Virus record (IMG/VR): IMGVR_UViG_3300006639_000017
Coordinates: 1 to 32,456 of that record
Direction: 5' to 3' (one strand)
Length of the DNA: 32,456 nucleotides
Source of the DNA: a virus
Lineage: Duplodnaviria > Caudoviricetes
In this document: piece after piece, positions 2,957 to 31,517 of the stretch
Position numbering within the stretch: the stretch's first letter is position 1
Layout: each line of letters starts with the position of its first letter
Made by a program: the position numbers and the translations under genes
The notes under the pieces: generated by a model
The model's database searches: none
What the model saw: the letters and a program-made list of their open reading frames with translations, nothing else
What the model was told of the DNA's origin: nothing

Positions 2957-2988
2957 TTTCACTTATTTCACTTATTTCACTTATTTCA
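2957..2988. repeat. Tandem 9-bp repeat (TTTCACTTA)x3.5
   Basis: Directly visible in the intergenic region. Confidence 0.85.
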
Positions 2989-3009
2989 TTTGCTACACGT
3001 GTCGCAAAC
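2988..3009. promoter_or_regulatory. 22-bp palindrome, copy 3 (intergenic)
   Basis: ATTTGCTACACGTGTCGCAAAC, 2 mismatches to copy 1, 30 bp upstream of a -35 box. Confidence 0.55.
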
Positions 3010-3068: not shown

Positions 3069-3108
3069 ATGGCTGTAGTATTTGAAATCAAAACAAGGAG
3101 TAACACAC

Positions 3109-4242
3109 ATGATCGCTTACACCAACTTCCTGTCGCACGCCGAAGTCGCCGCCTCTATCGTCGCAGACGGGCACGTTCTCACCACTCACATCTTGGGTGA
3201 GACGGGCATCGGCAAGACGGCTGTCGGCAAGCTGGTAGCCAAGGCGCTGCCCACCCACAGATTCAGCATCATCGACGCAACTCAGGTGTCGGACGGCAGC
3301 ATCACGCTGCCTGTGCTCGATGTTGAGCGTGGTATCTCAGATGAGTTACCAAATGTGCGGTTCGGTGTCAGCCGCACCAGTCAGCGTGGTGTCGATGGTA
3401 GCCAGCCCATCATCGTGTTCATTGACGAGTACAACAAGGCGTCCAAGTACGCCAAGAATGCACTGGCTCCGGTGATCTACGAGCGCAGGCTGGGTCACTT
3501 CTACCTGCCCGACAGTAGTGTCGTCATCCTTGCATCCAACCTTGGCGTAGAGGGCTACGGCGATACGTCGCAGATGTTCCTCAAGACTCGGGAAGCCACG
3601 CTGTACATGCGCAAGCCCACGTGCGAGGAGTTGGTGGCGCACGCCACTGAGCAGGGCTGGGAGGCAGAGGTGATCGGGTTCATTCATGAGCATCCGCAAG
3701 TGTGCGACTCATTCATGGACTACTCCAAGGAGTACGGCGGCAAGTACGCGGGTCGGGATCAGACCAAGGAGAATCAGATGATCCTCAATCCGTACGTGGA
3801 GCAAGACAAGATCACCTCACCGCGTACCCTTGAGTTCTCATCGCACGTGATGCGCGGGGCCAAGGCGCACAAGTTATCGCTCAATGTAGTGCGTGCCAAG
3901 CTGATCGGTACAGTTGGCGAAGCGTGCGCGCTGCTCATGATGGCGTACTTCCAGTCAGGCCAAGAGGCTGAGACTTTCGAGAACGTAGTCGCTGATCCCA
4001 TGGGCGCGCGTCTGAGTAACAACCCCACGGTGCAGTTGATCCAGTTGTTCAAGTTCCTCACACGTGTCTCTGATCGCACTGAGGCGCAGGCAGTGACCAA
4101 GTACATGTCTCGCTGCCGTGAGGAGATGCAGATCCTGTTCTGCAAGCGCGTGTCTAACACAGCCACGCTGATGTCGCTGTTCGTTACCGTCGCTGAGTTC
4201 GGTGCGATGCTGCGCAATAACCGTGACCTGTTCAAGCTGTAA
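3109..4242 (+). CDS. AAA+ ATPase (MoxR/dynein-related type)
   Basis: Walker A GETGIGKT, Walker B IVFIDE, sensor ILASN, SPRT motif; ATG 3109 after AAGGAG. Confidence 0.88.
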   Translation: MIAYTNFLSHAEVAASIVADGHVLTTHILGETGIGKTAVGKLVAKALPTHRFSIIDATQVSDGSITLPVLDVERGISDELPNVRFGVSRTSQRGVDGSQPIIVFIDEYNKASKYAKNALAPVIYERRLGHFYLPDSSVVILASNLGVEGYGDTSQMFLKTREATLYMRKPTCEELVAHATEQGWEAEVIGFIHEHPQVCDSFMDYSKEYGGKYAGRDQTKENQMILNPYVEQDKITSPRTLEFSSHVMRGAKAHKLSLNVVRAKLIGTVGEACALLMMAYFQSGQEAETFENVVADPMGARLSNNPTVQLIQLFKFLTRVSDRTEAQAVTKYMSRCREEMQILFCKRVSNTATLMSLFVTVAEFGAMLRNNRDLFKL

Positions 4243-4269
4243 ACCAACTACTAACAAGGAGTAACACAC

Positions 4270-5568
4270 ATGACTCTCACTACGCATTGGGATCGTCTGA
4301 CGCCTGAGCAGCGCGTCGCTGCGGCTGGCGTGGACTGCATGGGTAGCCCTATGTTTTCGTTCCTCACGGGCTTCTACGTGATGGGCACCGTGTCATTCGA
4401 TGACAAGTGGCAGACCGCTGCCACTAACGGACGCGACGAGTTCTACTCTCCCGAGTTTGTTGCCAAGCAGAACCGCAAGCAGATGCGCTACCTGCGCACC
4501 CACGAGGTGATGCACAAGGCGCTCAAGCACTGCTCGGACTACAAGGAGATCAACAGCAAGTATCCGCTACTGTCCAACATCGCGCAGGATCATGTCATCA
4601 ACCTCATGATTGAGTCGCTAGACCCGACGTTCAGTTTCGTTGAGCGTCCTGCTGGTGTGTCTATCTGTTGCGATGCGCAGTACACCGACATGAGTTGGCT
4701 CGATGTGCTGCGCCTGCTGATTAAAGATCAGCCACCACCGGATAGCCCCAAGCCCAAGAAAGATGGTAGCGGTGGTAAGGCTAGTGCACCGCAGGATGGT
4801 GCGCAGCCGGGGCGTGGTGCGGATGAGCCGCATGATGGTGTGGGTGAGCCGGGTATGCCGCTCGATACGCATCTGCCCCTGCCCGACGATGTTGACGCTG
4901 ACAAGCACAACGAGCAGGTCGATGTCATGGTGCGTCAAGGCAAGTTCATCGCTGACAAGCTGGCTGGTCGCAAGGGTAGCGGTGGCCCGCTTGATGCGCT
5001 TGCACAGACACGTAGCACTGACTGGGCTAGCGCCATGCGTGAGTTCATCGACACGGTGTGCGAGGGCGACGAGTATTCCACGTTCAGCCCGCCCAACAAG
5101 CGCCTGCAGCACCTCAACAACATCGTGCTGCCGTCTAGGTTCGATGAGCGTGCGGGTGAGCTAATCATTAACTGCGATACGTCAGGGTCTATGGGTAGCG
5201 TATATCCCACAGTGTTCGGTGAGATCGCGCGCATCGTGCAGGTTGCCAACCCCGAGGCAGTGCGCGTTATCTGGTGGGACACACGTGTGGCAGGCGAGCA
5301 GTTATTCACGCCTGCTCAGTACGCCAACATCGCCAAGCTGTTCAAGCCCAAGGGTGGCGGTGGTACCTCACCCGGTGCAGTGGTCGAGTACGTACGTGCT
5401 AAGAAGTACAAGCCTGTCGCTGCGATATGGCTCACTGATGGCTACCTCGATGGCTCCGAGGGGCAAGCGCGTGGACTCGACATCCCTCAGTTGTGGGGTG
5501 TCGTTGATAACACATCGTTTCGCGCACCTGTCGGCAAGGTTGTGCGTATCAACAGCATGACCCTGTGA
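4270..5568 (+). CDS. HExxH metallopeptidase-like + vWA domain protein (DUF2201-like)
   Basis: TAATNG, HEVMH, MIDAS DTSGSM, GGGGT and LTDGY motifs; follows the AAA ATPase. Confidence 0.88.
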   Translation: MTLTTHWDRLTPEQRVAAAGVDCMGSPMFSFLTGFYVMGTVSFDDKWQTAATNGRDEFYSPEFVAKQNRKQMRYLRTHEVMHKALKHCSDYKEINSKYPLLSNIAQDHVINLMIESLDPTFSFVERPAGVSICCDAQYTDMSWLDVLRLLIKDQPPPDSPKPKKDGSGGKASAPQDGAQPGRGADEPHDGVGEPGMPLDTHLPLPDDVDADKHNEQVDVMVRQGKFIADKLAGRKGSGGPLDALAQTRSTDWASAMREFIDTVCEGDEYSTFSPPNKRLQHLNNIVLPSRFDERAGELIINCDTSGSMGSVYPTVFGEIARIVQVANPEAVRVIWWDTRVAGEQLFTPAQYANIAKLFKPKGGGGTSPGAVVEYVRAKKYKPVAAIWLTDGYLDGSEGQARGLDIPQLWGVVDNTSFRAPVGKVVRINSMTL

Positions 5569-8770: not shown

Positions 8771-8970
8771 CTAAAGAAGACATCATCCGCATGGCGCGGG
8801 AGCAAGGACTTCCAGAGACTGAAGTCGAAGGTGTGTTCAGGGTTAATTCTGACGACCTTGGCCGATTGCTTGCTGCCGAGCGTGAGGCGTGTGCGAAGGT
8901 GTGTGATGGATGGCCCGACTACGATGTGCAGGGATTAGCTGAAGCAATCCGCGCAAGGGGGGAGGAATGA
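8767..8970 (+). CDS. Conserved small phage protein
   Basis: MTKEDIIRMARE...AAEREACAKVC...AEAIRARG pattern; GGAGG SD. Confidence 0.75.
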   Translation: MTKEDIIRMAREQGLPETEVEGVFRVNSDDLGRLLAAEREACAKVCDGWPDYDVQGLAEAIRARGEE

Positions 8971-9161
8971 CTAATAATAGAAAGATGAGATGGAATAGAG
9001 AAGACGAACATCCACCGGTACATACTATCCCCGCAGATAAACAGCATGAACCCGCACCACCACAAGTAGTTATCCACGCCAAAAACTGTTGGTCATGGGG
9101 GCCAGCTCATTACGAGTGTGCGTGTAATGAAATATCTAAACTTAGAGGATGGAAGAAATGA
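8967..9161 (+). CDS. Hypothetical protein
   Basis: 64 aa, GGAGG SD, H..NCWSWGPAHYECA motif. Confidence 0.6.
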   Translation: MTNNRKMRWNREDEHPPVHTIPADKQHEPAPPQVVIHAKNCWSWGPAHYECACNEISKLRGWKK

Positions 9162-9757
9162 CAATGCAAACTGCTGTAATTAGTGTCAAGGGTATCGCTC
9201 CCTTGTTAACAAACAATCCCCAAACTGTAGACCGTTTCAATCATTACGCCCGAAAGATGAAGGCGATCAATGACAAAAAGACTCGGCGCACAGACGATGA
9301 CTATCTTGAACTGCGCCAGCTTGAAATGGCGGCTAAGGTTTATTTTGACGACAGTCTCGGTGCATACGTTCCTTCTACATGGATGAGTGAGGGACTAGCG
9401 GGTTCCGCTTTTGCAACAGTCAAACTATCGCGGGACAAACTGCGGGGTGGACTATTCGTGACGGAATCGAAACTGAAACTAAACTACAAGGACTCCGACA
9501 AAGTTAGAGAGTCTTCTGATCTAGTTGGTAATCCCACGTTCCGCCACACTATTGCGCTACCGCAGGGGCAAGTCCGTGTGGTCAAAGTGTTCCCGATCTT
9601 CCATGAATGGTCGTTTAGCGCAAATGTCGAGTATGACGATGCGATCATGGACTTCGGAATGCTAGATCGTATTGCTAAATACGCTGGGAAATACGTTGGG
9701 TTTGGTGATCTTCGTCCGACATTTGGCCGCGCACTTGTGGAGGTAAAAAGTGAGTAA
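9158..9757 (+). CDS. Stand-alone RAMP / Cas7-like RNA-binding protein, putative effector of the adjacent pentamer-repeat array
   Basis: N-terminal strand ISVKGIAPLL, YVPS motif, PIFHEWSF strand, and C-terminal glycine-rich loop AGKYVGFGDLRPTFGRALV, the arrangement typical of RAMP RRM folds; start 9158 by ATGA coupling (alternatives 9149, 9164). Confidence 0.75.
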   Translation: MTMQTAVISVKGIAPLLTNNPQTVDRFNHYARKMKAINDKKTRRTDDDYLELRQLEMAAKVYFDDSLGAYVPSTWMSEGLAGSAFATVKLSRDKLRGGLFVTESKLKLNYKDSDKVRESSDLVGNPTFRHTIALPQGQVRVVKVFPIFHEWSFSANVEYDDAIMDFGMLDRIAKYAGKYVGFGDLRPTFGRALVEVKSE

Positions 9758-10187
9758 CGTATATCGTGACTTATTTGATGAGTTATTCGATTCTCGATTG
9801 CTTGAGTATGGGTCTATCATCTTGAGGGAAGATATTCATAAACTTTTAGATATTAAAGTGCCCGATGTTGGAACTAAAGCTGAGTTTGATCGGATTACTT
9901 TGATCGAATTATCTGCGATTGGTTATGTTCGCGGAGAGCTACTTAAGATGGGGCGTTACTTAGCTGGTACGCCCTCCGGTTATCGTGTTCTTTTGCCGAG
10001 TGAGAACGCTAAACAAGTTGAGCTTTACATAAACGCTGCATCTAAAAAATTGAAGCGGGCACAAACTCTAAGTAGTAACACACCTAAAGAGTACAAAGCC
10101 GACTTGGACCGTTCGGAAGCTCGGTCCGTGATGATGCAAGATGGAATGCGTTCAAGGTTTTCTTTCGCTGGGATTAATGTGCAGTGA
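9750..10187 (+). CDS. Hypothetical accessory protein between the RAMP gene and the array
   Basis: 145 aa, GGAGG SD, overlaps RAMP stop by 8 bp, shares AT-rich composition; C-terminal helical region. Confidence 0.75.
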   Translation: MSNVYRDLFDELFDSRLLEYGSIILREDIHKLLDIKVPDVGTKAEFDRITLIELSAIGYVRGELLKMGRYLAGTPSGYRVLLPSENAKQVELYINAASKKLKRAQTLSSNTPKEYKADLDRSEARSVMMQDGMRSRFSFAGINVQ

Positions 10188-10243
10188 TGGGTACTGCGGG
10201 GCGAAGAAGAGTACCGTAAAGTAGGGCATTACAGGGAATCGCA

Positions 10244-10304
10244 AAGCAACGCGGGGAGTTGGTCGGCAACGGCCGGTTCTCCGAGTCGTTTTGACTCAGA
10301 AGCA
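10244..10304 (+). repeat. Array structured repeat 1
   Basis: AAGCAACGC + 13-bp stem with GCAA tetraloop (10253-10282) + GAGTC-gtttt-GACTC + AGAAGCA. Confidence 0.85.
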
Positions 10305-10370
10305 AAGTAGTGTAGGGCAACAAATAGAACCGCTCGGCGGCGTATTGAACGTCACCGCACCGTATTGAAG

Positions 10371-10430
10371 AGTAACGCGGTCAGTTCATTTAGGTGAATT
10401 GATCGAGTCACTTTCAGGGACTCAGAAGCA
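10371..10430 (+). repeat. Array structured repeat 2
   Basis: AGTAACGC + GGTCAGTTCAT-ttag-GTGAATTGATC stem + GAGTC-actttcagg-GACTC + AGAAGCA. Confidence 0.85.
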
Positions 10431-10480
10431 GAGCAAGACAAGGAAACGTATTGTAAGTTAGTGCAAGGTACGGTACCGAA

Positions 10481-10538
10481 AAGCAACGCGGTCAGTTCAT
10501 CTAGGTGAATTGATCGAGTCGTTTTTGACTCAAACGCA
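10481..10538 (+). repeat. Array structured repeat 3
   Basis: AAGCAACGC + GGTCAGTTCAT-ctag-GTGAATTGATC + GAGTC-gttttt-GACTC + AAACGCA. Confidence 0.85.
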
Positions 10539-10608
10539 ACGGACTGTAGAGCAGTTTGTAGCAACACAAAGCACCACAAATCAATGTACGGCAAAGAAAC
10601 GTATGGTA

Positions 10609-10656
10609 AAGCAACGCGGGGAGTTGGTTGATAACAGCCGAGCCTGCAAGGTAGGC
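10609..10656 (+). repeat. Array terminal (divergent) repeat 4
   Basis: AAGCAACGCGGGGAGTTGGT shared with repeat 1; stem TTGGTTG-ataa-CAGCCGA, then GCCTGC-aag-GTAGGC. Confidence 0.75.
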
Positions 10657-10703
10657 GACGCGAGTAAAGGGGTTGTGTTTAAGGATTACGAGGTGGTTGC
10701 AGC

Positions 10704-10895
10704 ATGAAAGACACTAAAGCCCGAAGGACTTGCAAAAAGTGTAACAGCACATATGGCGCTTCAGCGTTTGCTACCCGCACGGGATTCATTTGCAAATGGT
10801 GTAAAGGAGGGGGACAAATTGTCCCTACCCCAAAGCAATTATCCCCGCAGCATAAACTTACTAAACTCCCTAAACTCCCTACACATGCCCAATAA
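10704..10895 (+). CDS. Small Zn-finger-like protein
   Basis: CKKC...CKWC; GAGG SD. Confidence 0.6.
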   Translation: MKDTKARRTCKKCNSTYGASAFATRTGFICKWCKGGGQIVPTPKQLSPQHKLTKLPKLPTHAQ

Positions 10896-11244
10896 GATAA
10901 AAGTTAACGCGATGTCGTTCGCGTTGTTACTCAAAGAAATGCTTCCCGGCGAATACACATGCGAGGAGTTGGCAGAACGGACAGGGTTGCACTACGTCAC
11001 AGTCCTGCGGTACACACGGGAGATGCACAGGGCGGGGTCCGCTTATATCCGTGCGTGGAGAATGAACCACCGCAAGCAGTACGTTCTTAAAGTCTACGGG
11101 ATCGGAGATCGAGAGGATGTGGATAAACCCCGCACTGCGATGACCCCAGCGCAGCGTCAACTGAAGTACAGAGCCAAACTTAGAAGGAGAGAAGAGTATG
11201 CAAAGCAACATCAACGACAGAATCAACCCCCAGCATTACCGTAA
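10885..11244 (+). CDS. HTH DNA-binding protein
   Basis: TCEELAERTGLHYVTVLRYTREMHRAG HTH; start uncertain (10885 or 10912). Confidence 0.7.
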   Translation: MPNKIKVNAMSFALLLKEMLPGEYTCEELAERTGLHYVTVLRYTREMHRAGSAYIRAWRMNHRKQYVLKVYGIGDREDVDKPRTAMTPAQRQLKYRAKLRRREEYAKQHQRQNQPPALP

Positions 11245-21813: not shown

Positions 21814-22077
21814 GATGGTCTTAACCATCGAGGCAGGGATCTCAGTGACATGGGCATGCGCCCCGTCCGTCAGCGTTGTTACTAGCTGAACCCACTCATC
21901 ATCTTGATGGACAAGGAACCCAATACTTGCACATAGGTGCAGCCCCTTCTTTTTAGGCGGGGCGGGCTTGTCTCCATCTTGCCAGTGCGAAGTTGTACTA
22001 AACGCGGCGTCCACCCAAGTAACGATTACCATCGGGATGTCTTTGCTTTTTCGCTTGGTAACCATAGTCAGGCTCAT
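21775..22077 (-). CDS. Conserved hypothetical phage protein
   Basis: VIVTWVDA...C.SIGFLV...IPASMV; ATGA coupling to the large virion gene. Confidence 0.75.
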   Translation of the reverse strand: MSLTMVTKRKSKDIPMVIVTWVDAAFSTTSHWQDGDKPAPPKKKGLHLCASIGFLVHQDDEWVQLVTTLTDGAHAHVTEIPASMVKTISLLKSSGLFEAS

Positions 22078-25000
22078 TGCGCCGCAAAACGAGATTCTAC
22101 TTGCCGGTTTACTGCCACAGTTTGACGGGCCAGTGCAAGTTCTATCTGCCGCAACCGGTCAAGCGTCTCGCGTTTCTGCTCCGAACTCATGTTAGGCGCT
22201 GCGCGGACGGCGGCTTCGGCAGCGTTAATTTCCCCAATATTCTGGCGCAGGCTCCCCGCCATGGACGCTATTGCAATTTGCCCAACGTACTGCGTCAGGA
22301 AAGCGCGCGCTCTGGCGGGATCAGCTTCTGCCAGCGCTTTGAACGTAGCCATCGCTTGCTCGTTAGCCTTAGCTTCTTGGAACGCTAGCTGCAAAATGCC
22401 GCCTGCGTCTTTAGGCTGGAACAGCCCGCCGATGATCGGGTAGTCGCTAACACGCGCAGTCGGCTGCGGCACCGCTGTGCCACCAAAAACAAAGTCAGGC
22501 AAGCGCAGCAAGCTGATGCCCAACGTAGCGAAGTAGCCATTGACGAGGTGGTCAACCTGTTTGGGCGACACGCCAACCGTCTCACCAAGGAACTTGGCAA
22601 GGCTAGAAGTTCTTTCATCAAACTGCATCTCGGGGGTCATACGCGCTAGCTTGTCGCTGACAATCGGCTGGCCCGTAAAGATGCTCTTGTTGAGCGCCAC
22701 CTCAAGCGCTGGCTTGATAGCCTGCGGCAAGTAATAAGACGACAGCCCCGGCACCGAGTTAGCGGCAAGGCTCTTCAAACCAGCAACAGCTTGCTTGGAC
22801 TTGGGGTCGTCCTTAGACATATGGTACAGAGCTTCGGGCAGCGCCTTGAACGCGAACCCGATTTCAAACGGGATCGGCACGCGAAGCGGCTCGGCAATAC
22901 CCGGCAGACGGACGAACCAATTACCGTAGCGCTGTTGCGGGGTGGCGTTCTCGTACGCCTCATCGTCGCCCATCATCCCGGCGTAGGCTATCGTCATGCC
23001 AGCCATAACAAACCCGCGCGTAATCAGCTTTTGCTTGACGCGCAGCTTCTCCTGCATAGTGGCTTTGCCAGTCAGCGCCTTGTACAGAACATCAAGGCCG
23101 ACGATCTGTGCGTTGAAGAACGGGATCAGCGTGTTCAGCATGTACATGCTGGGCGATACGCCGCGCTTGCTAAAGTTCATCGACTCAAGCGTAGCAAGGG
23201 TAGCCTCGCGCTCACTCAGACCTTGTTTCAGGAACGAGTTGTACATATTGACGCGGGTCGCCGCGTCGCCAGCCATAGCAACTGAATCCAGCTTCGCCAT
23301 GGCGTAGGACCAGCCCTTCTTGCCGCTGGCAATCTGCTGCATGATCTTCTGCATATCGTCTGGCATGCCAGAGATAACCTGCCCGCCGATCACACCGCGA
23401 CTCTGAAGGACGTTTGCGCTGGTGCTCTTTCCGCTGGCGATCTTGCTCATCTCGCCAAGCGCAGACACAACAGGCTTATAGTCAGCGCCAGAAGTAAACA
23501 ACCCGGTCAGTGAATCGCGTACAACCTGCCGCACCGCATAGCGCGGGTCGCGCGTCACGAACTTGCGCAGAATGTTAGACGGGATGCCAAGCAGCCTGAG
23601 TCCGGCAGGGAACGTAGTGACAATACCTTCCATCCCCTTAACAACAAGCTCGGGCGGGATGTCACCAAACAGTTCTTCCATGGCGGCGGTATCGACGCGC
23701 CACGATTGTTCTTCGCCGTCAACCTTGGCGCTGATGATGTCTTTGCCTTTTACGCCGGAACCGACCCGCACAGCGATACCAAGGTCTTTAAGCGTGAACG
23801 CCACATTGCGCGTGGCAAGGTTGCGCAACGACAGATCCGTCAGCATCGCCGTGTTCTGCAAAGACGATGTGAAGAAGTCGAGCACAGCCTCATCGCCACC
23901 CACAAGGCTTTGAAGATCAGGCTGCTCTTTGATGCTGCCAATCCGAATCGGCGTCTCACCGCCAATGTACAACCCAACGATGCCGTCTTTGCCGACACGG
24001 TAGTAAGGAACGTAGTCGCCCTTCGTGTACGCCGCAGCCACCTGCTTGCTGATAGCGCCGGTCTGAACAGCAAAGTCAATCAGTCCGTTATTGTACTCAC
24101 GGTAAATACCGCGCGCGGTCTGGAACGCTTCGTTGCCACGCCCAAACTCAAGCGCGGCCTTAAGCTCGGTTGGATCGAAGTCTTTGCTGTAGTTCAGCTT
24201 GTCGATCCCAACGCCGTCCTTACCCAGCGCACGCTCAGCCAACAGGTATTTGGTAAACAGAATGTTTGTAGCTTCTGGGTTTCCTACCTTGGCCTTGCTC
24301 AACGCTTCGGACACTTGCTTCAGACTAGCGCCGCGCTTGGACTCAACTATGACTTCGCCTTTGTCGTTCTTGACAAGTTGCAGCGTGCCATTGGTAGCCG
24401 ACTCAGCAACAAAGCTGTTGCGCTGATCGTGCATGCGGATGAAAAACGTCAGGTCCATCGCCTTGACGGGATCAAGTAGTCCTTCTGCAAGCCCGCGTCG
24501 AGCAATCTCTTCATGTACAGCAGCACGGTCAATGAACTGCGTACGGAACTCAAGACCGCGCACATTAGCTTTTACTCGCTCCCAGCCACGTTTCTTTTGG
24601 CTGACCAGCGTGCTGTCTTTAGCCGTCAGAATAGCCGGTACGTCACTGGCGTAGCGCGCACCTTGTCCAAGCCGGAAAGAAATAGCGCCATCGCTGTCAC
24701 GTGCTGCTAGCGGCTTACCCTCATTAAAGTTAGCGCGGGACTGGCGCATCAGGTAGTACAGGTCCGATGTCGTCATCTTAGACGCATCGACCAGCCCCAT
24801 CTTCTTAAGCGCAACGCGCAACGCGCCGACCATCTCCTTAATGAACGTTCCAGCCTTTTGCATCAGGCCAGCGTCTACACGAGCTTCCTCAGTGTAGGCA
24901 ACGATCTCTTTAAGAAGCTGCAAATCACCAGCGCGTTTGTCAGTTTGGCTAATGCCCGCCTGCGGGATGCCAAGCTTCTCAGCCATGTTGCGAACGTCAG

Positions 25001-28000
25001 GGATCTTGTCGAGAAGAGCGTTCATGCCCTTCTCACCAACAAAACCTTCAAAGCCAACGTGACCGACAAGCTCGTGGGTGATGGTCTTTTCAAGGTCAAC
25101 CATATCCGTATGGTTTTCCCCAACAACAAACACCGTTCCGTCAGGCAGAACACCCCCGCGTACGGTGTCGATGTCCACACCCTGCGCTTCGATCCCGTCC
25201 AGTATGGCCTTGGGCAGCGCTGCCTTAGTTGCAAAGTATTGGAACTTAACGCCTTCCGGAGCTTTCAGCTTATCGGCGCGAGCTTGTGCATCAGCGAGGT
25301 TAATGCCGCCGCCTTTCTCACCGACGCGGAACTCAATCGGATTGCTGAAATCAATATCGCCTTCAACGTCGAATTCGGCTTTGTCGATACGCGCCGCTTC
25401 GTTCTCTTCCCGGCGTGCGTTTTGCACAGCGGCGATAGCTTTTGCTGACCCACGAAGTGCTTTAGCCTTTGTTGTGCGCTCTGCTGCTTCTTTCTTTTCT
25501 GGAGAAGTCGCGGCGCGTAGCGCGGGTGGTGTGCTTCCCTTCGACTCATAGCCTTGCATCGCCATACGCGAAACACGGCGGTCAACGTCCGACACGCGTT
25601 TGCCGGGGGTACCGGGCAAAACAACACGCTCACGAGCTTCTTCAACAAGCCGCTTTTTCTTTTCGGCAGGCGTTTCAAAGTAGTCTGAAACTTTTGAAGA
25701 AGTAACGCTAGGCCGGTCAATAACTTTCTTGCGCTGATAAAGCGTGTCGTAAGCGCCGTCTATGTCGAGAACGCCCTGTCCTGCTTTAGCGGTTTCCGAA
25801 GCTTTGTCAGTAGGAAGGATTACCTCGTTAACAACAATCGTCTGGCGCACAACGGGTACGCCAATCTTCTGCGCATCAAAAATTGCCTGCTGCTCTTTAA
25901 GGTTGGCTTCGTTAATGCTGCGCTCTTGGTTGCTACTGAGCTTTTGCAAATCGGCAATAAGCTGCGCCTTGGCTGCGGCAGCTTGTTTTGCAGCCCGTTC
26001 AGCCAGCCTAGTATCTACATCAACTGCGTTGAGCTTTGTGATTAAGTCGTCTTGCGCAACCGACAAAGCCTCTAAGCCCTGCGTTGCTTTGATAAGCGGG
26101 CGCATTACCGCCGCTTTGTGCATCTCGTACGACTGCATTACGCCGTCAGTAAAATTCTCAAGGCGCGTGCGCCCCTGCGTAACGTACTGTTGAAACGCGT
26201 TGAACTCATCAAGCGAAACGATGTTTGTAGAGATAGCCTCGTCTATTCTTGACGGCAGCGCTGCCTGAAGCGTAAGGAAGTCGTCCGCAATAGCCTTGCT
26301 CATGCGGTCAACAGCAACAGCACGGTCAGTCAACAGCTTCGACACCGACTTCATTCTGGCGCGCAAAGCATTTTGTTGGGATGAGCGCCGTCCTTGCGCT
26401 TGCTCTTCAGTTTCCTGAAGCTCCGCAGGGAACTGCTCTTTTACGGCTTGTACAATTTTGCCTTCGCTTTCAACCAACGCATTCGTCGTTCGTTCTACTT
26501 CTCTGTAGTGATCGACAAGCCGCTGCCGGTTGTACGCAAAGTTCGCAAAGTACACCTGCATATCAGCGTTAAACTGGCGCGCATCAAAAGCAGCAACAGT
26601 CACGCGCAGCTTGTTGGCTAGTGCCTCTGCTTGAGGAAGGCTGTTCAACTGCTGAATCAGCTTATTGCGCTTAGTTCTGTTTGCCGCCGAAAGCGGTTTA
26701 GTACGTGCGGCTTCGCGCTTGCTAACTGTCTCTTCAATCCTCTTTGCAAGCTCAAGCAAATTTTTGTACTTGTAACCAGCAATAACCGTTTTTGGAATCG
26801 CGAGGTCTTCAAGCGGCGTTTGTTTTTTGTGCGCAGCGCGCAGCTTAGCCGCTACCGAAAGCAAAAACTTATCTGCGTCGAACTCGCTCTTTAGCTCCGC
26901 CAGCCTGCCCTGCAACTTAACCGCGCGGGTATAGAGAGAATCTCTAGCAGCAGCAAGTTGTTCATTTGCTGATTTCCTAAACTCGGCGTCCATGTTTTTA
27001 GCGCCGGTCTTAAGCTCTTCTAACTGTTCGGTAAGGATGTTGAGCTTAGTAGCGTTAGCGTCGATCAAACGCTGCAACCGCCGCTTAAGTGTCTCCGCAC
27101 GCTTTTCTGCTTTAGTCTGAATAACCGTTGGGCGCAAGACTGTCTTTGGCCCGATGTCGCTATCGCTAGGAGCTTGCTCAAGGCGCACGTTGCTGGTACT
27201 GGGCGTTGTGTAGGAAAACTTCAACGCTTCCTGAGCTTTGGCGCTTGCGTCTGCAAGCTGATTAGCATACGTAAGCTGCGCAACGTAAGGCGTGTTCTCG
27301 CTGGAGACAAGAGCATTATTAAGCGCGATCTTGACGTTAAGCTCGTTTATTTTTCCTTCGACGCTAGCAATCCTGTTAAGGATAGCCTCACGTTTATTCT
27401 TGTAACCCTGCGTCGCCGCTTCTTCAGCACCTAAATCCTCAAGCATCTGCTTAGCGGACTCAACGTCGCCCGGAAGTTCAAAATTCCAGTCGCTGTTAAT
27501 AGCTTTAAGTAGCTTAGCCCTGTCGCTTTCTTGTTTGCTGTTTAGCGTGTCGAGAGACTGCTGATGCACTTCCTGCTCGCGCTTGAGCACCTCGATTTCT
27601 TTTTCAAACTTCTCGTTTTCCTTGATTAAGGGAGCCGCTTCTTTCTTCACGCGGTCCCGCTCAACGTCAAGCTGCTCCTTAGTGCTAGGAATAAGCTCAG
27701 AGAACATATCGCGCGTAGCGGTATCAGGCTCTTTGCCAGCCTCGGCTTCCTGCTTTTCTTGCTCTTCAGCCGCGCGCCTACGCTCTTCCATGCGCGCAAC
27801 CTCTGCCTTGGTCTGGCCTTTAAGCTCAAACTCAGGTTCAACGCGCTGGAACCGCTGCTTATATTCCTCGTTGGCAGCAGCAATCCTCTCTGCTACAGAC
27901 GGGCCTGTAGTGGTCGCCACAGCCTGTGCTTTCTTAGGCAGTCTGAGGATCTTGCGCTCTTTACCGACAACGCCTTCAACGCCTTCCATTGCCTTCGTTT

Positions 28001-31000
28001 CGGCTTCGATTGTTGCTTTTTGCAACTGCTCGGCGTAGACAGCAATTTGTTTAGCGTAAGGGCGGTACTCTTCAAAAGCCTTCTCCAGCGCGGCATCACG
28101 CTGCGTGTCACCACGAAACTTGGACGTAAGCTTTTTGTTTTTTGTCTCAACCAAAGAACGGATTCGGTCGCCGAGCGGTCCTTTGGCGTTGAACAAACTC
28201 TCAATAAACGCCGCCTGCATAGAAGAATCCAGATCGGCAAAGCGAACTGCTGGATCTTCCATTTCTGTTTGCAGCGCAAGATCGCCTTTGCCGGTCCTTG
28301 CCAGCGGACGCTCAGAAAGCGGACGGTCTTCTTTTAGGTCGCCTTTGTTGTATATGGTGGACGGCGTAGCTACAGCGCGTGTGGTCAACTCGTCAATGAC
28401 ACGAATGACCGGACGCAGGACTGCGTACTTAGACGCTGCTGGGAGAGGCTTACCGCCTTCTTGTACTCGCTGAAGGCTAAGCTCGCGGTACAACGTGTCG
28501 ATGTAATCTTTGCCAAGCTTCTTGAGCAGATCCGATTTCTCTTTAAGCTCTCTGCGCCTAGCGTTGTTGATATCGGTGCGCCGCTTTTTCTCGGCAGCAC
28601 TCATTGTTTTGCTAATAGGCAACCGACGGAACAAGTCGCTAGTACGCACTTCCCACGCAGCGCGAACAATGTCGTCAAAAATTTGCTCACGCTTTAGGTA
28701 CAGGTCGTTCTCTGTACCTTTGTACTCCGCGCGCGTTTGTTCAGCCGGTTTAGCCTGCGCAGCTTCTGCTTTCTTCTTACCGGCGGTGGTGAACTTTTCA
28801 AGCTCAGGCTGGGCAAGCGCGTCTTGCAAGACGGCAATTCTGTCGTTTACGCTTTGAAGTCGCTGTTCGGCTACAGCGCGTTGCTCTGGGGAAAGCTTAA
28901 GCCCTTCCGCCTCTGTACGTTCTCCACGTGGGCGAAGCGCACTAATGGTAGACAGTGACTTCTCAAGCTCACGCCTTTCCTGCTCAAGCCCAGCGATCTT
29001 GCTTTCTGCCGCCTCAACACCAAGACCGGCAGTAATAGGACGGGCTTCCGGGTTTCTGTATTTAGCAAGGTTTTCGCGGGACAGGTTTTGCTGGGTACTG
29101 GCAACTTCAACGGCACTAGCCAACCGGTTAAGCGCGGCGGAGATCGCAGCTTGCTCACCAGTTTGTTGCTCGGGGGCGGGCGCAAGCAGCCCAGCAATCT
29201 TATCGACAGTAGTATCGACAGCCCGCGCGTCAGACACAGCCTTTTCAGACCGCATACGAAGATCGCGCAGCACGTTAAGCTGAGCGTTCTTCTCCATGAG
29301 CGCGCGCCCATAGTCGTTTAGATACCCGTTTTCGTCAGCGACATCTTTTGCGTTCTTAGCCGCTTTATCCAGTTCGGTTTGTAGCTGCTCAATTCTGGAG
29401 GTTGCTTTCTCAAGCAAGCGCCTAGCTGCCTCCGGGTCATTGAGGTCAGAGTCCACACCGCGCAGATTAAGACCAAGCTTGGACGAGAGATCGCTCGAAA
29501 CTACGTTACGGTCAAGGTTTTCCTTAACCTGCTGACGATATGCTTCAGCCTTATCGCGCTCTTCTTTCTCCAACCTGCGGGCTTCGGCCAGTGCCGCGCC
29601 TTTATCTTCTTGCGCTTTAGCACGGGCAACGGCAAGCCGTTCGTTAATCCGCGCTTCCGGATCGGGCAAAAGAAGTTTGAGCGGATTATCCAGCGCTGCC
29701 TCAACCACATCCGCAGAACGCGACGCAGCCGCAAACTGATCGCGCTGTTGCTTACGCTGCTCGGCCTCTTGGAACAAACGCTCTTGATCGCGCTGTTTAC
29801 GCGCAAACTCATCCGAAAGAGTTAGCTGTTCTTGCTGAGCGTTGCTTACGCCAGTAGACGCAGCTTGCGCTTCGCGCAGTGCATTTTCTACCGTACTTAA
29901 AGAAGCGCCCGGCTTGGTAGCCCGCGCAAGTGCGGATTGAAGATTGCCAGCGGCAGTAGCTCCGCGATCCAACGGGATAGCTTCGCCAAACAAACCCATG
30001 GTCTGCCCTGCGGGTACAACTTCTTCTTCAGCAAACAAGCTGCCTTGGGGAGCAGCGCCCATCTGAGAACCAATACGCTCAGCGTCCGCAAGCGCACTTT
30101 CCATTTGCTGCTGGCGGCGAATGTTTTGCTGCAAAAGCTCCAGTTTCTGCGCTTCCGGCAAATTCTGTCGGCCAATAGCTACTCGCTGCTGCTTAAGCGT
30201 TTCGATCTCGTTCATCAAAACCCGGCGTTCGCGGTCTATAGCAGCGAAGTCTTGCGGAGCCTGAGCGCCTTCCGGACGAGCCGCAGCCTGTGCTTCGCCT
30301 TGTCTAACAATGTCTTGCAGACGAGCAACTTCATCCCAGTTACCGTCGCGCTGTGCTTGAACCATTGCAGAACGCGCAGCGTTAATCTGCTGCGGGCTAA
30401 CCTGTAGCGCGCTAGCAGCGCCAAACATATCCGGCTGAGCGGACGCCCTGCCCATCGGAGACTCAATCGGCATGAACTTAGCCGCAGCCTCCATGCCTGC
30501 TGCTCGCTCTTCTGCGGCATCTTTTTCTTGTTGAACTAGCTTAGCCTGCGCCCGCTCAGCGGTGCGCTGTTCGATCTGTTTTTGCTCGACTTGTTCTTGC
30601 GCACCACTTCTTTGAGAGTAGCGACCAGCGGCACCAAGCGGGGCAAGAAGCGACGCACCATACGCATTCTCAGCGTACTCTTTCATGGCGTCGTCAGTAG
30701 TAAGCGGCAACCCGGCTTGCAGCCGCTCAATCATTGCCTGCCCGACTTCAGTCGGAACTTCAGCAAGTACGCTAGTCCCAGCGCCCTTAGCCAACGTGGT
30801 GCGCAGCCGCTCTTCAGCCAGCTTGACGACCTGTGCTTCGCTGCGTCTGACCAGTTGCTGTTCGGGGACGCCAAGAATCTTAGCGATCATCCCACGCCCA
30901 AGCGGGATAGCCTGCGCAGCTACATCAAGCGCAGCCGCAGGAGCGGCAGCAGCAAACGCCTTACCGGCAGAAACATCGACAGGAGCGCCACGTTCCTGCT

Positions 31001-31517
31001 GCTCTCGGGCTTGTCGTTCTGCAAACGTACCACCCATTTCGAGCATGGACGGCGCAAACGCACCAAGCGCACCGCCAACCACCGCGCCTGCCGGTCCAAA
31101 CGGAGAACCAGCCATAGCGCCAAGTCGAGCGCCAGCGGCGGTAGCACCAATACGAGGAAGCTGTTCAGCAATAGCAAGCGGGATTTGTCGCCCAACTTCC
31201 CCGGCAGCGCCAAGCACGCCTCGTTGTTCATAAGCCTGCTTAAGCAGGTCAAGACCAGTCTGATTAGCGAAACGCTGGTTAATGTCTTTCTGTCGTTCCA
31301 ACCCAGCAAGCGCGGCTTGATTGGCATCCGTAAACAACCCAAACCCGGTACGCGTACCGGAGGCAAGCTGCTCGATGCCTTTACCTGCCGCAGCTAAATA
31401 CCCAGTCTTGGGTTTGTTTTGAAGAGCGTAAGCCTGCGCCCATTGCCACGCCGTACGTGAATCCGGCGCTTCTACTTCGTAAGTCTTACCGCCAAAATCA
31501 ACGTCGTACTTAGGCAT
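22074..31517 (-). CDS. Giant internal virion/ejection polyvalent protein with HExxxH peptidase-like segment and C-terminal LPD38-like domain
   Basis: 3147 aa; Gly/Ala-rich hydrophobic N-terminus, long coiled coils, THELVGHVG (~25059-25076), C-terminal NWFVRLPG..LRVPIPFEIG..FKALPE..KPALEVALNKSIFTGQPIV..SPKQVDHLVNGYF. Confidence 0.85.
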   Translation of the reverse strand: MPKYDVDFGGKTYEVEAPDSRTAWQWAQAYALQNKPKTGYLAAAGKGIEQLASGTRTGFGLFTDANQAALAGLERQKDINQRFANQTGLDLLKQAYEQRGVLGAAGEVGRQIPLAIAEQLPRIGATAAGARLGAMAGSPFGPAGAVVGGALGAFAPSMLEMGGTFAERQAREQQERGAPVDVSAGKAFAAAAPAAALDVAAQAIPLGRGMIAKILGVPEQQLVRRSEAQVVKLAEERLRTTLAKGAGTSVLAEVPTEVGQAMIERLQAGLPLTTDDAMKEYAENAYGASLLAPLGAAGRYSQRSGAQEQVEQKQIEQRTAERAQAKLVQQEKDAAEERAAGMEAAAKFMPIESPMGRASAQPDMFGAASALQVSPQQINAARSAMVQAQRDGNWDEVARLQDIVRQGEAQAAARPEGAQAPQDFAAIDRERRVLMNEIETLKQQRVAIGRQNLPEAQKLELLQQNIRRQQQMESALADAERIGSQMGAAPQGSLFAEEEVVPAGQTMGLFGEAIPLDRGATAAGNLQSALARATKPGASLSTVENALREAQAASTGVSNAQQEQLTLSDEFARKQRDQERLFQEAEQRKQQRDQFAAASRSADVVEAALDNPLKLLLPDPEARINERLAVARAKAQEDKGAALAEARRLEKEERDKAEAYRQQVKENLDRNVVSSDLSSKLGLNLRGVDSDLNDPEAARRLLEKATSRIEQLQTELDKAAKNAKDVADENGYLNDYGRALMEKNAQLNVLRDLRMRSEKAVSDARAVDTTVDKIAGLLAPAPEQQTGEQAAISAALNRLASAVEVASTQQNLSRENLAKYRNPEARPITAGLGVEAAESKIAGLEQERRELEKSLSTISALRPRGERTEAEGLKLSPEQRAVAEQRLQSVNDRIAVLQDALAQPELEKFTTAGKKKAEAAQAKPAEQTRAEYKGTENDLYLKREQIFDDIVRAAWEVRTSDLFRRLPISKTMSAAEKKRRTDINNARRRELKEKSDLLKKLGKDYIDTLYRELSLQRVQEGGKPLPAASKYAVLRPVIRVIDELTTRAVATPSTIYNKGDLKEDRPLSERPLARTGKGDLALQTEMEDPAVRFADLDSSMQAAFIESLFNAKGPLGDRIRSLVETKNKKLTSKFRGDTQRDAALEKAFEEYRPYAKQIAVYAEQLQKATIEAETKAMEGVEGVVGKERKILRLPKKAQAVATTTGPSVAERIAAANEEYKQRFQRVEPEFELKGQTKAEVARMEERRRAAEEQEKQEAEAGKEPDTATRDMFSELIPSTKEQLDVERDRVKKEAAPLIKENEKFEKEIEVLKREQEVHQQSLDTLNSKQESDRAKLLKAINSDWNFELPGDVESAKQMLEDLGAEEAATQGYKNKREAILNRIASVEGKINELNVKIALNNALVSSENTPYVAQLTYANQLADASAKAQEALKFSYTTPSTSNVRLEQAPSDSDIGPKTVLRPTVIQTKAEKRAETLKRRLQRLIDANATKLNILTEQLEELKTGAKNMDAEFRKSANEQLAAARDSLYTRAVKLQGRLAELKSEFDADKFLLSVAAKLRAAHKKQTPLEDLAIPKTVIAGYKYKNLLELAKRIEETVSKREAARTKPLSAANRTKRNKLIQQLNSLPQAEALANKLRVTVAAFDARQFNADMQVYFANFAYNRQRLVDHYREVERTTNALVESEGKIVQAVKEQFPAELQETEEQAQGRRSSQQNALRARMKSVSKLLTDRAVAVDRMSKAIADDFLTLQAALPSRIDEAISTNIVSLDEFNAFQQYVTQGRTRLENFTDGVMQSYEMHKAAVMRPLIKATQGLEALSVAQDDLITKLNAVDVDTRLAERAAKQAAAAKAQLIADLQKLSSNQERSINEANLKEQQAIFDAQKIGVPVVRQTIVVNEVILPTDKASETAKAGQGVLDIDGAYDTLYQRKKVIDRPSVTSSKVSDYFETPAEKKKRLVEEARERVVLPGTPGKRVSDVDRRVSRMAMQGYESKGSTPPALRAATSPEKKEAAERTTKAKALRGSAKAIAAVQNARREENEAARIDKAEFDVEGDIDFSNPIEFRVGEKGGGINLADAQARADKLKAPEGVKFQYFATKAALPKAILDGIEAQGVDIDTVRGGVLPDGTVFVVGENHTDMVDLEKTITHELVGHVGFEGFVGEKGMNALLDKIPDVRNMAEKLGIPQAGISQTDKRAGDLQLLKEIVAYTEEARVDAGLMQKAGTFIKEMVGALRVALKKMGLVDASKMTTSDLYYLMRQSRANFNEGKPLAARDSDGAISFRLGQGARYASDVPAILTAKDSTLVSQKKRGWERVKANVRGLEFRTQFIDRAAVHEEIARRGLAEGLLDPVKAMDLTFFIRMHDQRNSFVAESATNGTLQLVKNDKGEVIVESKRGASLKQVSEALSKAKVGNPEATNILFTKYLLAERALGKDGVGIDKLNYSKDFDPTELKAALEFGRGNEAFQTARGIYREYNNGLIDFAVQTGAISKQVAAAYTKGDYVPYYRVGKDGIVGLYIGGETPIRIGSIKEQPDLQSLVGGDEAVLDFFTSSLQNTAMLTDLSLRNLATRNVAFTLKDLGIAVRVGSGVKGKDIISAKVDGEEQSWRVDTAAMEELFGDIPPELVVKGMEGIVTTFPAGLRLLGIPSNILRKFVTRDPRYAVRQVVRDSLTGLFTSGADYKPVVSALGEMSKIASGKSTSANVLQSRGVIGGQVISGMPDDMQKIMQQIASGKKGWSYAMAKLDSVAMAGDAATRVNMYNSFLKQGLSEREATLATLESMNFSKRGVSPSMYMLNTLIPFFNAQIVGLDVLYKALTGKATMQEKLRVKQKLITRGFVMAGMTIAYAGMMGDDEAYENATPQQRYGNWFVRLPGIAEPLRVPIPFEIGFAFKALPEALYHMSKDDPKSKQAVAGLKSLAANSVPGLSSYYLPQAIKPALEVALNKSIFTGQPIVSDKLARMTPEMQFDERTSSLAKFLGETVGVSPKQVDHLVNGYFATLGISLLRLPDFVFGGTAVPQPTARVSDYPIIGGLFQPKDAGGILQLAFQEAKANEQAMATFKALAEADPARARAFLTQYVGQIAIASMAGSLRQNIGEINAAEAAVRAAPNMSSEQKRETLDRLRQIELALARQTVAVNRQVESRFAAQ

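Follow-up and report, generated by a model that had tools for sequence, protein, structure and literature searches.

A GCA-scaffold VIPR-type locus in an environmental phage and its predicted targeting of large serine recombinase genes

The vipr–vap locus and its periodic array

The window analyzed here, 32,456 nt in length, is the whole of an IMG/VR virus record with an estimated completeness of 50%. The gene vipr (9158–9757, plus strand) encodes a 199-aa single-RRM RAMP of a GCA-reading clade (PHROG 4652). It is overlapped by vap (9750–10187, plus strand), which encodes a putative Vap1-like accessory protein of 145 aa and has a GTG start after GGAGG. Four guide RNA (vrRNA) units follow on the same strand: unit 1 (10181–10297) with 12 variable pentamers (10181–10240) and a pseudoknotted tail, unit 2 (10302–10423) with 13 (10302–10366) and a tail, unit 3 (10423–10531) with 11 (10423–10477, the first being junction sequence) and a tail, and unit 4 (10536–10656) with 14 (10536–10605) and a tail that is non-standard after 10641. 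Each guide comprises 11–14 variable pentamers and two tail units, followed by a structured tail, in keeping with VIPR guides, which have about 9–16 tandem pentamers ahead of such a tail.

The 5-nt periodicity lay in four tracts (about 10181–10250, 10302–10376, 10423–10487, and 10536–10615), and no other GCA-type tract was found on either strand of the window. The combined lag-5 and lag-10 identity over 10190–10660 was 0.746, compared with 0.518 ± 0.028 (maximum, 0.626) in 2000 mononucleotide shuffles and with a maximum of 0.591 in 309 other windows of the contig. These data confirmed the initial annotation, which had described a 199-aa ORF with RAMP motifs, an overlapping 145-aa ORF, and four periodic units downstream. 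Its statement that the window lacks cas1, cas2, cas3, cas10, and a canonical CRISPR also agreed with our scans. No CRISPR array was present among the 20 largest of the 24 direct-repeat families of the window, and scans of the larger ORFs (18 against Pfam and 15 against NCBIfam) yielded no Cas family above its cut-off, the sole Cas signal being a sub-threshold Cas3' match on the SNF2 helicase in NCBIfam. The locus therefore shows the VIPR layout of vipr and vap without a CRISPR array or cas genes in a phage (record about 50% complete), and not the repeat-spacer array and cas operon of class 1 CRISPR–Cas. No sigma-70-like promoter was found in 8900–10950, no Rfam match was obtained, and Pfam, PADLOC, and NCBIfam held no model for Vipr or Vap.

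The record also encodes a DNA polymerase A, the SNF2 helicase, a DUF927 primase, a MoxR-like AAA and vWA/metallopeptidase (DUF2201) pair (3082–5568), and a 3147-aa protein (22074–31517) ending in LPD38 (Pfam). The DNA polymerase matched known sequences at 33% at best, from which no host could be inferred. In the early region, a 23-nt palindrome (TGTTTGCGACAC.TGTCGCAAAC) occurs in four copies (338–360, 655–677, 942–964, and 2987–3009), which are probably operators or phage promoters.

Among sequences of solved structures, Escherichia phage SUSP1 Vipr (PDB ID: 36pp) was the sole match to the window Vipr at E ≤ 1 (phmmer, E = 1.2e-15, residues 7–199). The two proteins shared 27–29% identity over their full length, and hhalign aligned the window protein to the described Vipr with a probability of 99.6%. 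The structure model (pLDDT 92), compared with an April 2026 structure library, matched type VII Cas7 and Csm/Cmr subunits (best Z, 11.6; rmsd, 2.8; 136 aligned). The protein is a stand-alone single-RRM RAMP with a thumb and a G-loop, homologous to the described Vipr; both the Cas7-like fold, for which a structure comparison had been proposed, and the kinship to VIPR that had been suggested from the letters of the sequence were borne out. Homologues at E ≤ 0.001 numbered 663 among 926 candidates, and 2411 clusters at 50% reached E ≤ 0.001, 37 of them 1e-30. Members of the GCA clade borne by cultured phages or isolates included Vibrio phage 1.266.O (L038), phiHSIC (L039), and an Azonexus prophage (L168); the phiHSIC annotation places hypothetical ORFs over the arrays, on the opposite strand.

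A vap homologue was present in 39 of 41 vipr loci. The predicted Vap architecture combined a winged-helix-like N-terminal domain with long helices (best winged-helix Z, 7.4, a middling value), and hhalign linked Vap to a Felixounavirus gene that occupies the vap1 position (probability, 81.9; E = 1.1e-5), so that, judged by profile comparison, Vap is a Vap1-like protein distantly related to that gene. With regard to type II, a vap1-like partner (hhalign probability of 81.9%, middling fold match) speaks for an assignment, but the GCA clade branches apart from SUSP1 and five other phage Viprs.

Every unit ended in a long variable hairpin and a short GAGTC/GACTC stem, and the tail stems of units 1–3 were perfectly paired. 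Bases in the loop of this short stem pair with the final pentamers, which lie 5' of the hairpin, crossing the stem itself and forming a pseudoknot of five pairs, four of which changed on both sides (89% of cells paired in 23 tails). Over the whole tail structure, 93% of cells paired, compared with 74% in shuffled and 30–49% in slid controls, counts that are inflated by kinship among the sequences and that come from 23 selected tails (the window and 10 loci), from whose alignment the structure itself had been drawn. Each unit had been described earlier as a periodic tract with a double hairpin; the tract stood, and the tail proved to be a hairpin with a pseudoknot. The last two pentamers were nearly constant, and the target match of guide 3 ends before them because they pair in the pseudoknot. 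The tails of SUSP1 guides likewise form a pseudoknot (10.64898/2026.04.26.720920). The tail of unit 4 broke off at 10641, and a near-identical cassette in run X3 continued with a complete standard tail.

A related phage lacks the accessory cassette, as a run X4 contig joined 9161 directly to 10837 and skipped 1675 nt; by this empty site, the cassette is judged to extend over 9162–10836. In run X3, 9146–10641 had other neighbors on either side; guide 1 differed there at an N position (10210) and at 10212, where GCA stood for GTA, and the unit 4 tail was complete. The empty site and the other flanks together indicated that the cassette is an accessory module. Both ORFs were intact and nearly identical across runs of 2017–2024 from three studies. 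An imperfect direct repeat (TATCCCCGCAG.ATAAAC; 9027–9043 and 10840–10857) lies close to the 9161/10837 joint. A run X16 contig covering 10448–10600 was considered as a sign of expression and set aside as no evidence, the RNA nature of that run being only a guess.

Scaffold triplet and pocket residues

The constant triplet of the window array was GHA in 42 of 58 pentamers (GCA, 17; GTA, 17; GAA, 8) and GGY in none of the 58. The canonical GGY feature of VIPR is therefore absent; because the VIPR preprints allow "a related consensus", this bars the canonical form only (10.64898/2026.04.26.720920; 10.64898/2026.10.21.760802, accessible portion). Periodic tracts adjoined vipr in 28 of 30 non-redundant homologous loci, from which near-duplicates (L001–L003, L012, L013, L023, L024, L035, L037, and L040, the last being the window itself) had been left out. 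Over 1093 pentamers, the clade consensus was G (0.93), C (0.83), and A (0.88) with near-flat positions 4–5; the pentamer detector was seeded on GCA, and an unseeded periodicity scan showed the same tracts. A motif-agnostic count returned GCA as the sole top triplet in 23 of the 30 loci. Among more distant phage Viprs, six of seven, including SUSP1, adjoined strict GGY runs, and the seventh had a looser GGY-type tract. The initial annotation had read the array as a constant GHA triplet with variable NN, had suggested that homologues be searched for adjacent periodic arrays, and had raised the possibility of a distinct subtype; the clade reads GCA on a branch separate from SUSP1, and neither the fold nor the neighborhood of the homologues turned out in the way that would have refuted the annotation.

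In the SUSP1 complex, as described in the accessible part of 10.64898/2026.04.26.720927, each triplet is gripped by two adjacent protomers with one protomer per repeat. An earlier proposal that each protomer grips one triplet over a 5-nt footprint consequently holds for the footprint and not for the grip. The same source reports that D177 reads G1, R138 reads G2, and the M72 pocket excludes purines at position 3. The D177 equivalent was Asp in all 31 GCA-clade rows of the alignment, and the R138 equivalent was Arg in 0/31 of these rows and in 7/7 other rows. The M72 equivalent was Trp in 31/31, and the H17 equivalent was Asn in 28, Ser in two, and Lys in one. Among the 120 closest Vipr homologues, N19 was found in 117 and W75 in 119. 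At the level of the alignment, these pocket changes fit a recognition that preserves G1, loosens G2, and replaces Y3 by A. A single branch with 100/100 support sets the 31 GCA rows apart from the others, and pocket and triplet covary on this branch only, which makes them one evolutionary event and not many. Two Vipr representatives, P0128 and P0142, have a mixed pocket (W at 75 and R at 145) and are possible sequence intermediates between GGY and GCA readers.

Several further features of the arrays were observed. The commonest clade pentamer was GCAAG (84/1062), a hint that the GCA code originated as a GGC-AA repeat read one base over. One phage carried both codes: a canonical GGY/NN tract of about 13 units (L020:4184–4248) directly followed a five-unit GCA array, and may be a solo or captured GGY guide or a transition state. 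Guides of 22–29 pentamers, about twice the published range, occurred at L032:3082–3216 and 3273–3417 and at L020:3676–3785. Internal duplications in several clade guides suggest diversification by slippage or unit shuffling. The window triplets were more degenerate than those of the clade, GTA being as common as GCA, and this, together with the altered unit 4 tail, may mean that some units are decaying.

Predicted targets of the guides

We decoded the guides by the published one-base-skip rule (10.64898/2026.04.26.720920). Guide 3 decoded to the antisense of GRLTLNVLLSF, a motif of large serine recombinases. Its seed (the last eight units) had at least 122 viral matches, and the best 40 of the 122 listed all fell in the same gene family, antisense of NTT(T/S)SMGRLTLNVLLSFAQFERE. 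At the six out-of-seed bases, 93 of the 122 listed matches agreed at all six, 25 at five, and four at three or four; two of these bases belong to the constant junction sequence, so that four constitute a fair test. The full 22-base pattern had at least 121 exact 22/22 sites in viral contigs, located in large serine recombinase genes, and, among 101 bacterial genomes of the order to which the Azonexus host belongs, seven sites in six (reversed control, 0). The encoded proteins contain Resolvase, Recombinase, and Zn ribbon domains. Across the matched sites, the NN columns were conserved at 0.78–1.00 and the 10 internal skipped columns at 0.40–0.66, the skipped base being the codon wobble position. 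Since all matches belong to one gene family, they count as one event. A use against competing phages or host genes had been proposed as an example, and these predicted sites lend substance to a use against competing elements.

We then examined the neighbors of the target genes in 86 clustered loci, consisting of 79 of the 120 viral loci (those with flanks) and seven genomic ones. DUF2924 was found in 78, a terminase RNaseH domain in 47, a DNA methylase in 43, and DUF5681 and DUF3489 in 34 each. The loci look like compact integrated elements, presumably satellites or prophages. No solo GCA guide was found in the target loci.

When the 91 clade guides were compared with the 120 recombinase loci, one further match appeared under a one-base skip and none under skips of 0 or 2 (E < 0.01), and the reversed controls gave 1, 0, and 1; of the two guides in 91 at this threshold, one was the guide used to fetch the loci. 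The other, the guide at L011:1922–1991, matched the catalytic motif VYKIDRL of the same recombinase genes on the sense strand at 22/24, with 68 sites at 20/24 or better, compared with 16–17 under other skips and at most 20 in 300 shuffles. Of 81 genomes searched with a third guide, L004:3948–4022, one contained a 23/26 match, in a P4-type tyrosine integrase (control, 0); before the search, we had taken the peptide decoded from this guide to be the arm domain of a P4-type integrase. The peptides decoded from L006:3557–3641, L008:2204–2258, and L010:2235–2289 may resemble recombinase zinc-ribbon or N-terminal motifs. The one-base skip on the codon wobble position, on either strand, was thus recovered computationally for the guide 3, L011, and L004 guides, and the occurrence of matches on both strands (guide 3 antisense, L011 sense) argues for DNA and not mRNA as the target.

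No target was found for guides 1, 2, and 4. Guide 1 had 47 viral seed matches, none of which extended beyond chance; its 21/24 sites in 2 of 151 genomes, in what we take to be a polysaccharide-deacetylase-like gene (antisense) and a transporter-like gene, were at chance level and were not accepted. Guide 2 had 6 and 26 viral seed matches without full extension (best, L500, with nine contiguous variable units), none in metagenome contigs, and none in 151 genomes (control, 1). Guide 4 had at least 120 viral seed matches, the best of those listed agreeing at 7 of 18 out-of-seed bases, and none in 301 genomes or in metagenome contigs; the start of its decoded peptide, TTL[DE]VYT, may resemble the tyrosine recombinase catalytic motif. 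The Azonexus guide had no match in its own genome, and a comparison of all guides with the vipr loci and the window under skips of 0–2 yielded nothing under one skip. Within the 32-kb fragment, the best one-skip self-matches of guides 1–4 were 15/24, 17/26, 15/22, and 17/28, and no self-target was apparent, as in VIPR. A match of L167:277–351 (20/22, E = 2e-4) was rejected, the reversed control having reached 6e-4. The guide at L005:2139–2198 matched its own contig (about 292–330) at 19/20 under a two-base skip (E = 1e-4, uncorrected for high GC or for 240 tests), probably by chance.

Proposed function and comparison with known systems

We consider it very probable that the locus encodes a GCA-scaffold VIPR that binds double-stranded DNA by gapped pairing, silences recombinase genes, and keeps rival elements from leaving the chromosome. 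The present analysis provides the homology, fold, code, pocket changes, tail covariation, and target matches, and filament geometry, silencing, and the block of excision are carried over from the SUSP1 papers. The layout resembles type II, with vipr, a putative vap1-like gene, and a tailed guide array in which a GCA/GHA scaffold replaces GGY. The array would be transcribed into four RNAs of about 110–120 nt. By analogy, Vipr would polymerize on each RNA with one protomer per pentamer, flipping out the three constant bases and presenting the NN pairs, and the 3' pseudoknot would cap the filament. The filament would then bind double-stranded DNA, reading two bases and skipping one, such that the skipped base falls on the codon wobble position, and would block transcription without cutting, as modeled on SUSP1. 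In the case of guide 3, this should silence the large serine recombinase of integrated terminase-bearing elements, whether satellites or prophages, and could thereby keep them in the chromosome during infection. We infer the expression and activity of the system, its host, and that such elements parasitize this phage.

A reading that retains the VIPR chemistry, which we regard as rather unlikely, is that this copy is partly decayed or that its other guides address non-mobile targets, such as host genes, non-coding sites, or other VIPR loci, the recombinase guide being a legacy of an earlier carrier phage. The cassette is indeed an indel found in different flanks, its unit 4 tail is altered, its triplets are degenerate, and searches of viral sequences, genomes, and metagenome contigs returned no target for guides 1, 2, and 4. 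However, those databases were sampled thinly and mostly by exact match, and decay fits poorly with two ORFs preserved across the runs of 2017–2024, with perfectly paired tail stems in units 1–3, and with a guide 3 that still matches its target family exactly.

That the system acts on RNA, by mRNA binding or by cleavage as in Csm3 or type VII Cas7, is far less probable. The best fold matches are type VII Cas7 and Csm/Cmr subunits, and guide 3 is complementary to recombinase mRNA, but the L011 guide, from another member of the clade, has the sequence of the coding strand, which rules out pairing with mRNA, the cassette has no nuclease gene, and the closest solved relative by sequence, SUSP1 Vipr, requires a DNA third strand for the full filament (10.64898/2026.04.26.720927, accessible part).

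It is scarcely credible, and largely refuted by the out-of-seed extension of guide 3 and the L011 shuffle test, that a degenerate microsatellite or some other non-coding repeat underlies the tract and that the match to recombinases arose by chance: many relatives do have low-complexity guides with internal duplications, and a 16-base seed search can be saturated by conserved gene families, as the at least 120 seed matches of guide 4 illustrate, but tracts are linked to vipr in 28 of 30 loci, the tails covary, the out-of-seed extension exists for guide 3 and not for the chance families matched by guides 1, 2, and 4, and two further guides reach recombinase or integrase motifs only under a one-base skip.

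Beyond the reading of the locus as a recombinase-silencing GCA-scaffold VIPR, we tentatively suggest, at somewhat less than even confidence, that the GCA clade represents a second VIPR alphabet, orthogonal to the first, which originated when the register shifted by one base (GGC-AA and GCA-AG being one repeat in adjacent frames) and the G2 and Y3 pockets were rebuilt. Its members would not load GGY guides, so that the GGY decoys with which satellites counter SUSP1 (10.64898/2026.10.15.759431, accessible part) would leave them unaffected, and their guides would serve as family-wide anti-integrase reagents. If so, one 11-codon guide would cover a whole family of large serine recombinases, with sister phages converging on other recombinase and integrase motifs, and the clade would provide a second, independent DNA binder that is programmable and weighs about 22 kDa, and with it a natural pair in which to study how the scaffold code depends on the pocket of a RAMP. 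The natural targets indicate that the two-read-one-skip code holds with GCA replacing GGY, and thus that the scaffold can change independently of the targeting geometry. Orthogonality is directly testable, as positions 19, 75, 145, 180, and 185 are the likely determinants of the triplet, and L038, L039, and L168 offer convenient experimental material. The strategy by which a phage turns on the recombinase of a satellite, described for a single E. coli pair, would extend to a clade that is widespread in the environment (663 homologues at E ≤ 0.001) and takes in phiHSIC, Vibrio 1.266.O, and an Azonexus prophage.

VIPR was defined with seven types and, in the methods of the discovery preprint, alternative YNNNG, NNNGG, and NNNNG repeats; perturbation of GGY abolishes silencing by SUSP1 Vipr (10.64898/2026.04.26.720920). 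The window system resembles type II VIPR (SUSP1 and a P. fulva prophage) in its homologous Vipr, its predicted vap1-like downstream gene, its four tailed pseudoknot guides, its 5-nt repeat, its one-base skip on the wobble position, and its lack of Cas genes. It differs in its GCA/GHA scaffold, in having F145, N19, and W75 at the equivalents of R138, H17, and M72, in a tail of unrelated sequence whose pseudoknot uses the last pentamers, in having all four guides abutting one another downstream of vap, and in its carrier, a freshwater/subsurface podovirus-like phage.

The accessible part of 10.64898/2026.10.15.759431 reports experimentally that SUSP1 VIPR blocks satellite excision via the satellite recombinase. 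Like SUSP1 vrRNA4 against the F5 satellite recombinase described there, guide 3 reads codon positions 1–2 of a conserved large recombinase motif and, as a prediction for the window, should likewise prevent excision of the integrated element. Unlike SUSP1 vrRNA4 as it appears in that text, guide 3 has a footprint of 11 codons instead of six, a GCA scaffold, and a target in another recombinase family and element, a DUF2924–recombinase cassette beside terminase and methylase genes; no literature describing such cassettes was found among work on DUF2924 elements.

The accessible text of 10.64898/2026.10.21.760802 lists 21 non-canonical clusters, e.g., GAC/NN, CAC/NN, WGT/NN, and TGH/NN, and the window shares with these a Vipr-like protein next to 5-mer repeats whose triplet is not GGY. 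Because CANNG is compatible with YNNNG, and TGH reads as DCA on the other strand, the GCA clade may already lie, unnamed, within the YNNNG or TGH/NN data sets. A named GCA type, decoded non-GGY targets, or a link between triplet and pocket residues was not found in the running text of the available preprints. The RRM/RAMP fold with a G-rich loop is shared with the Cas7/Csm3/Cmr backbone RAMPs of class 1 CRISPR (types III and VII), whereas the window has no CRISPR array or cas genes, and its guides pair with gaps along a 5-nt scaffold, unlike a contiguous spacer. The accessible preprint texts already contain VIPR, the targeting of recombinases, and triplets other than GGY. The window system is not a new class; broadly defined, the VIPR family includes it, and it departs from that family in the canonical GGY feature only.
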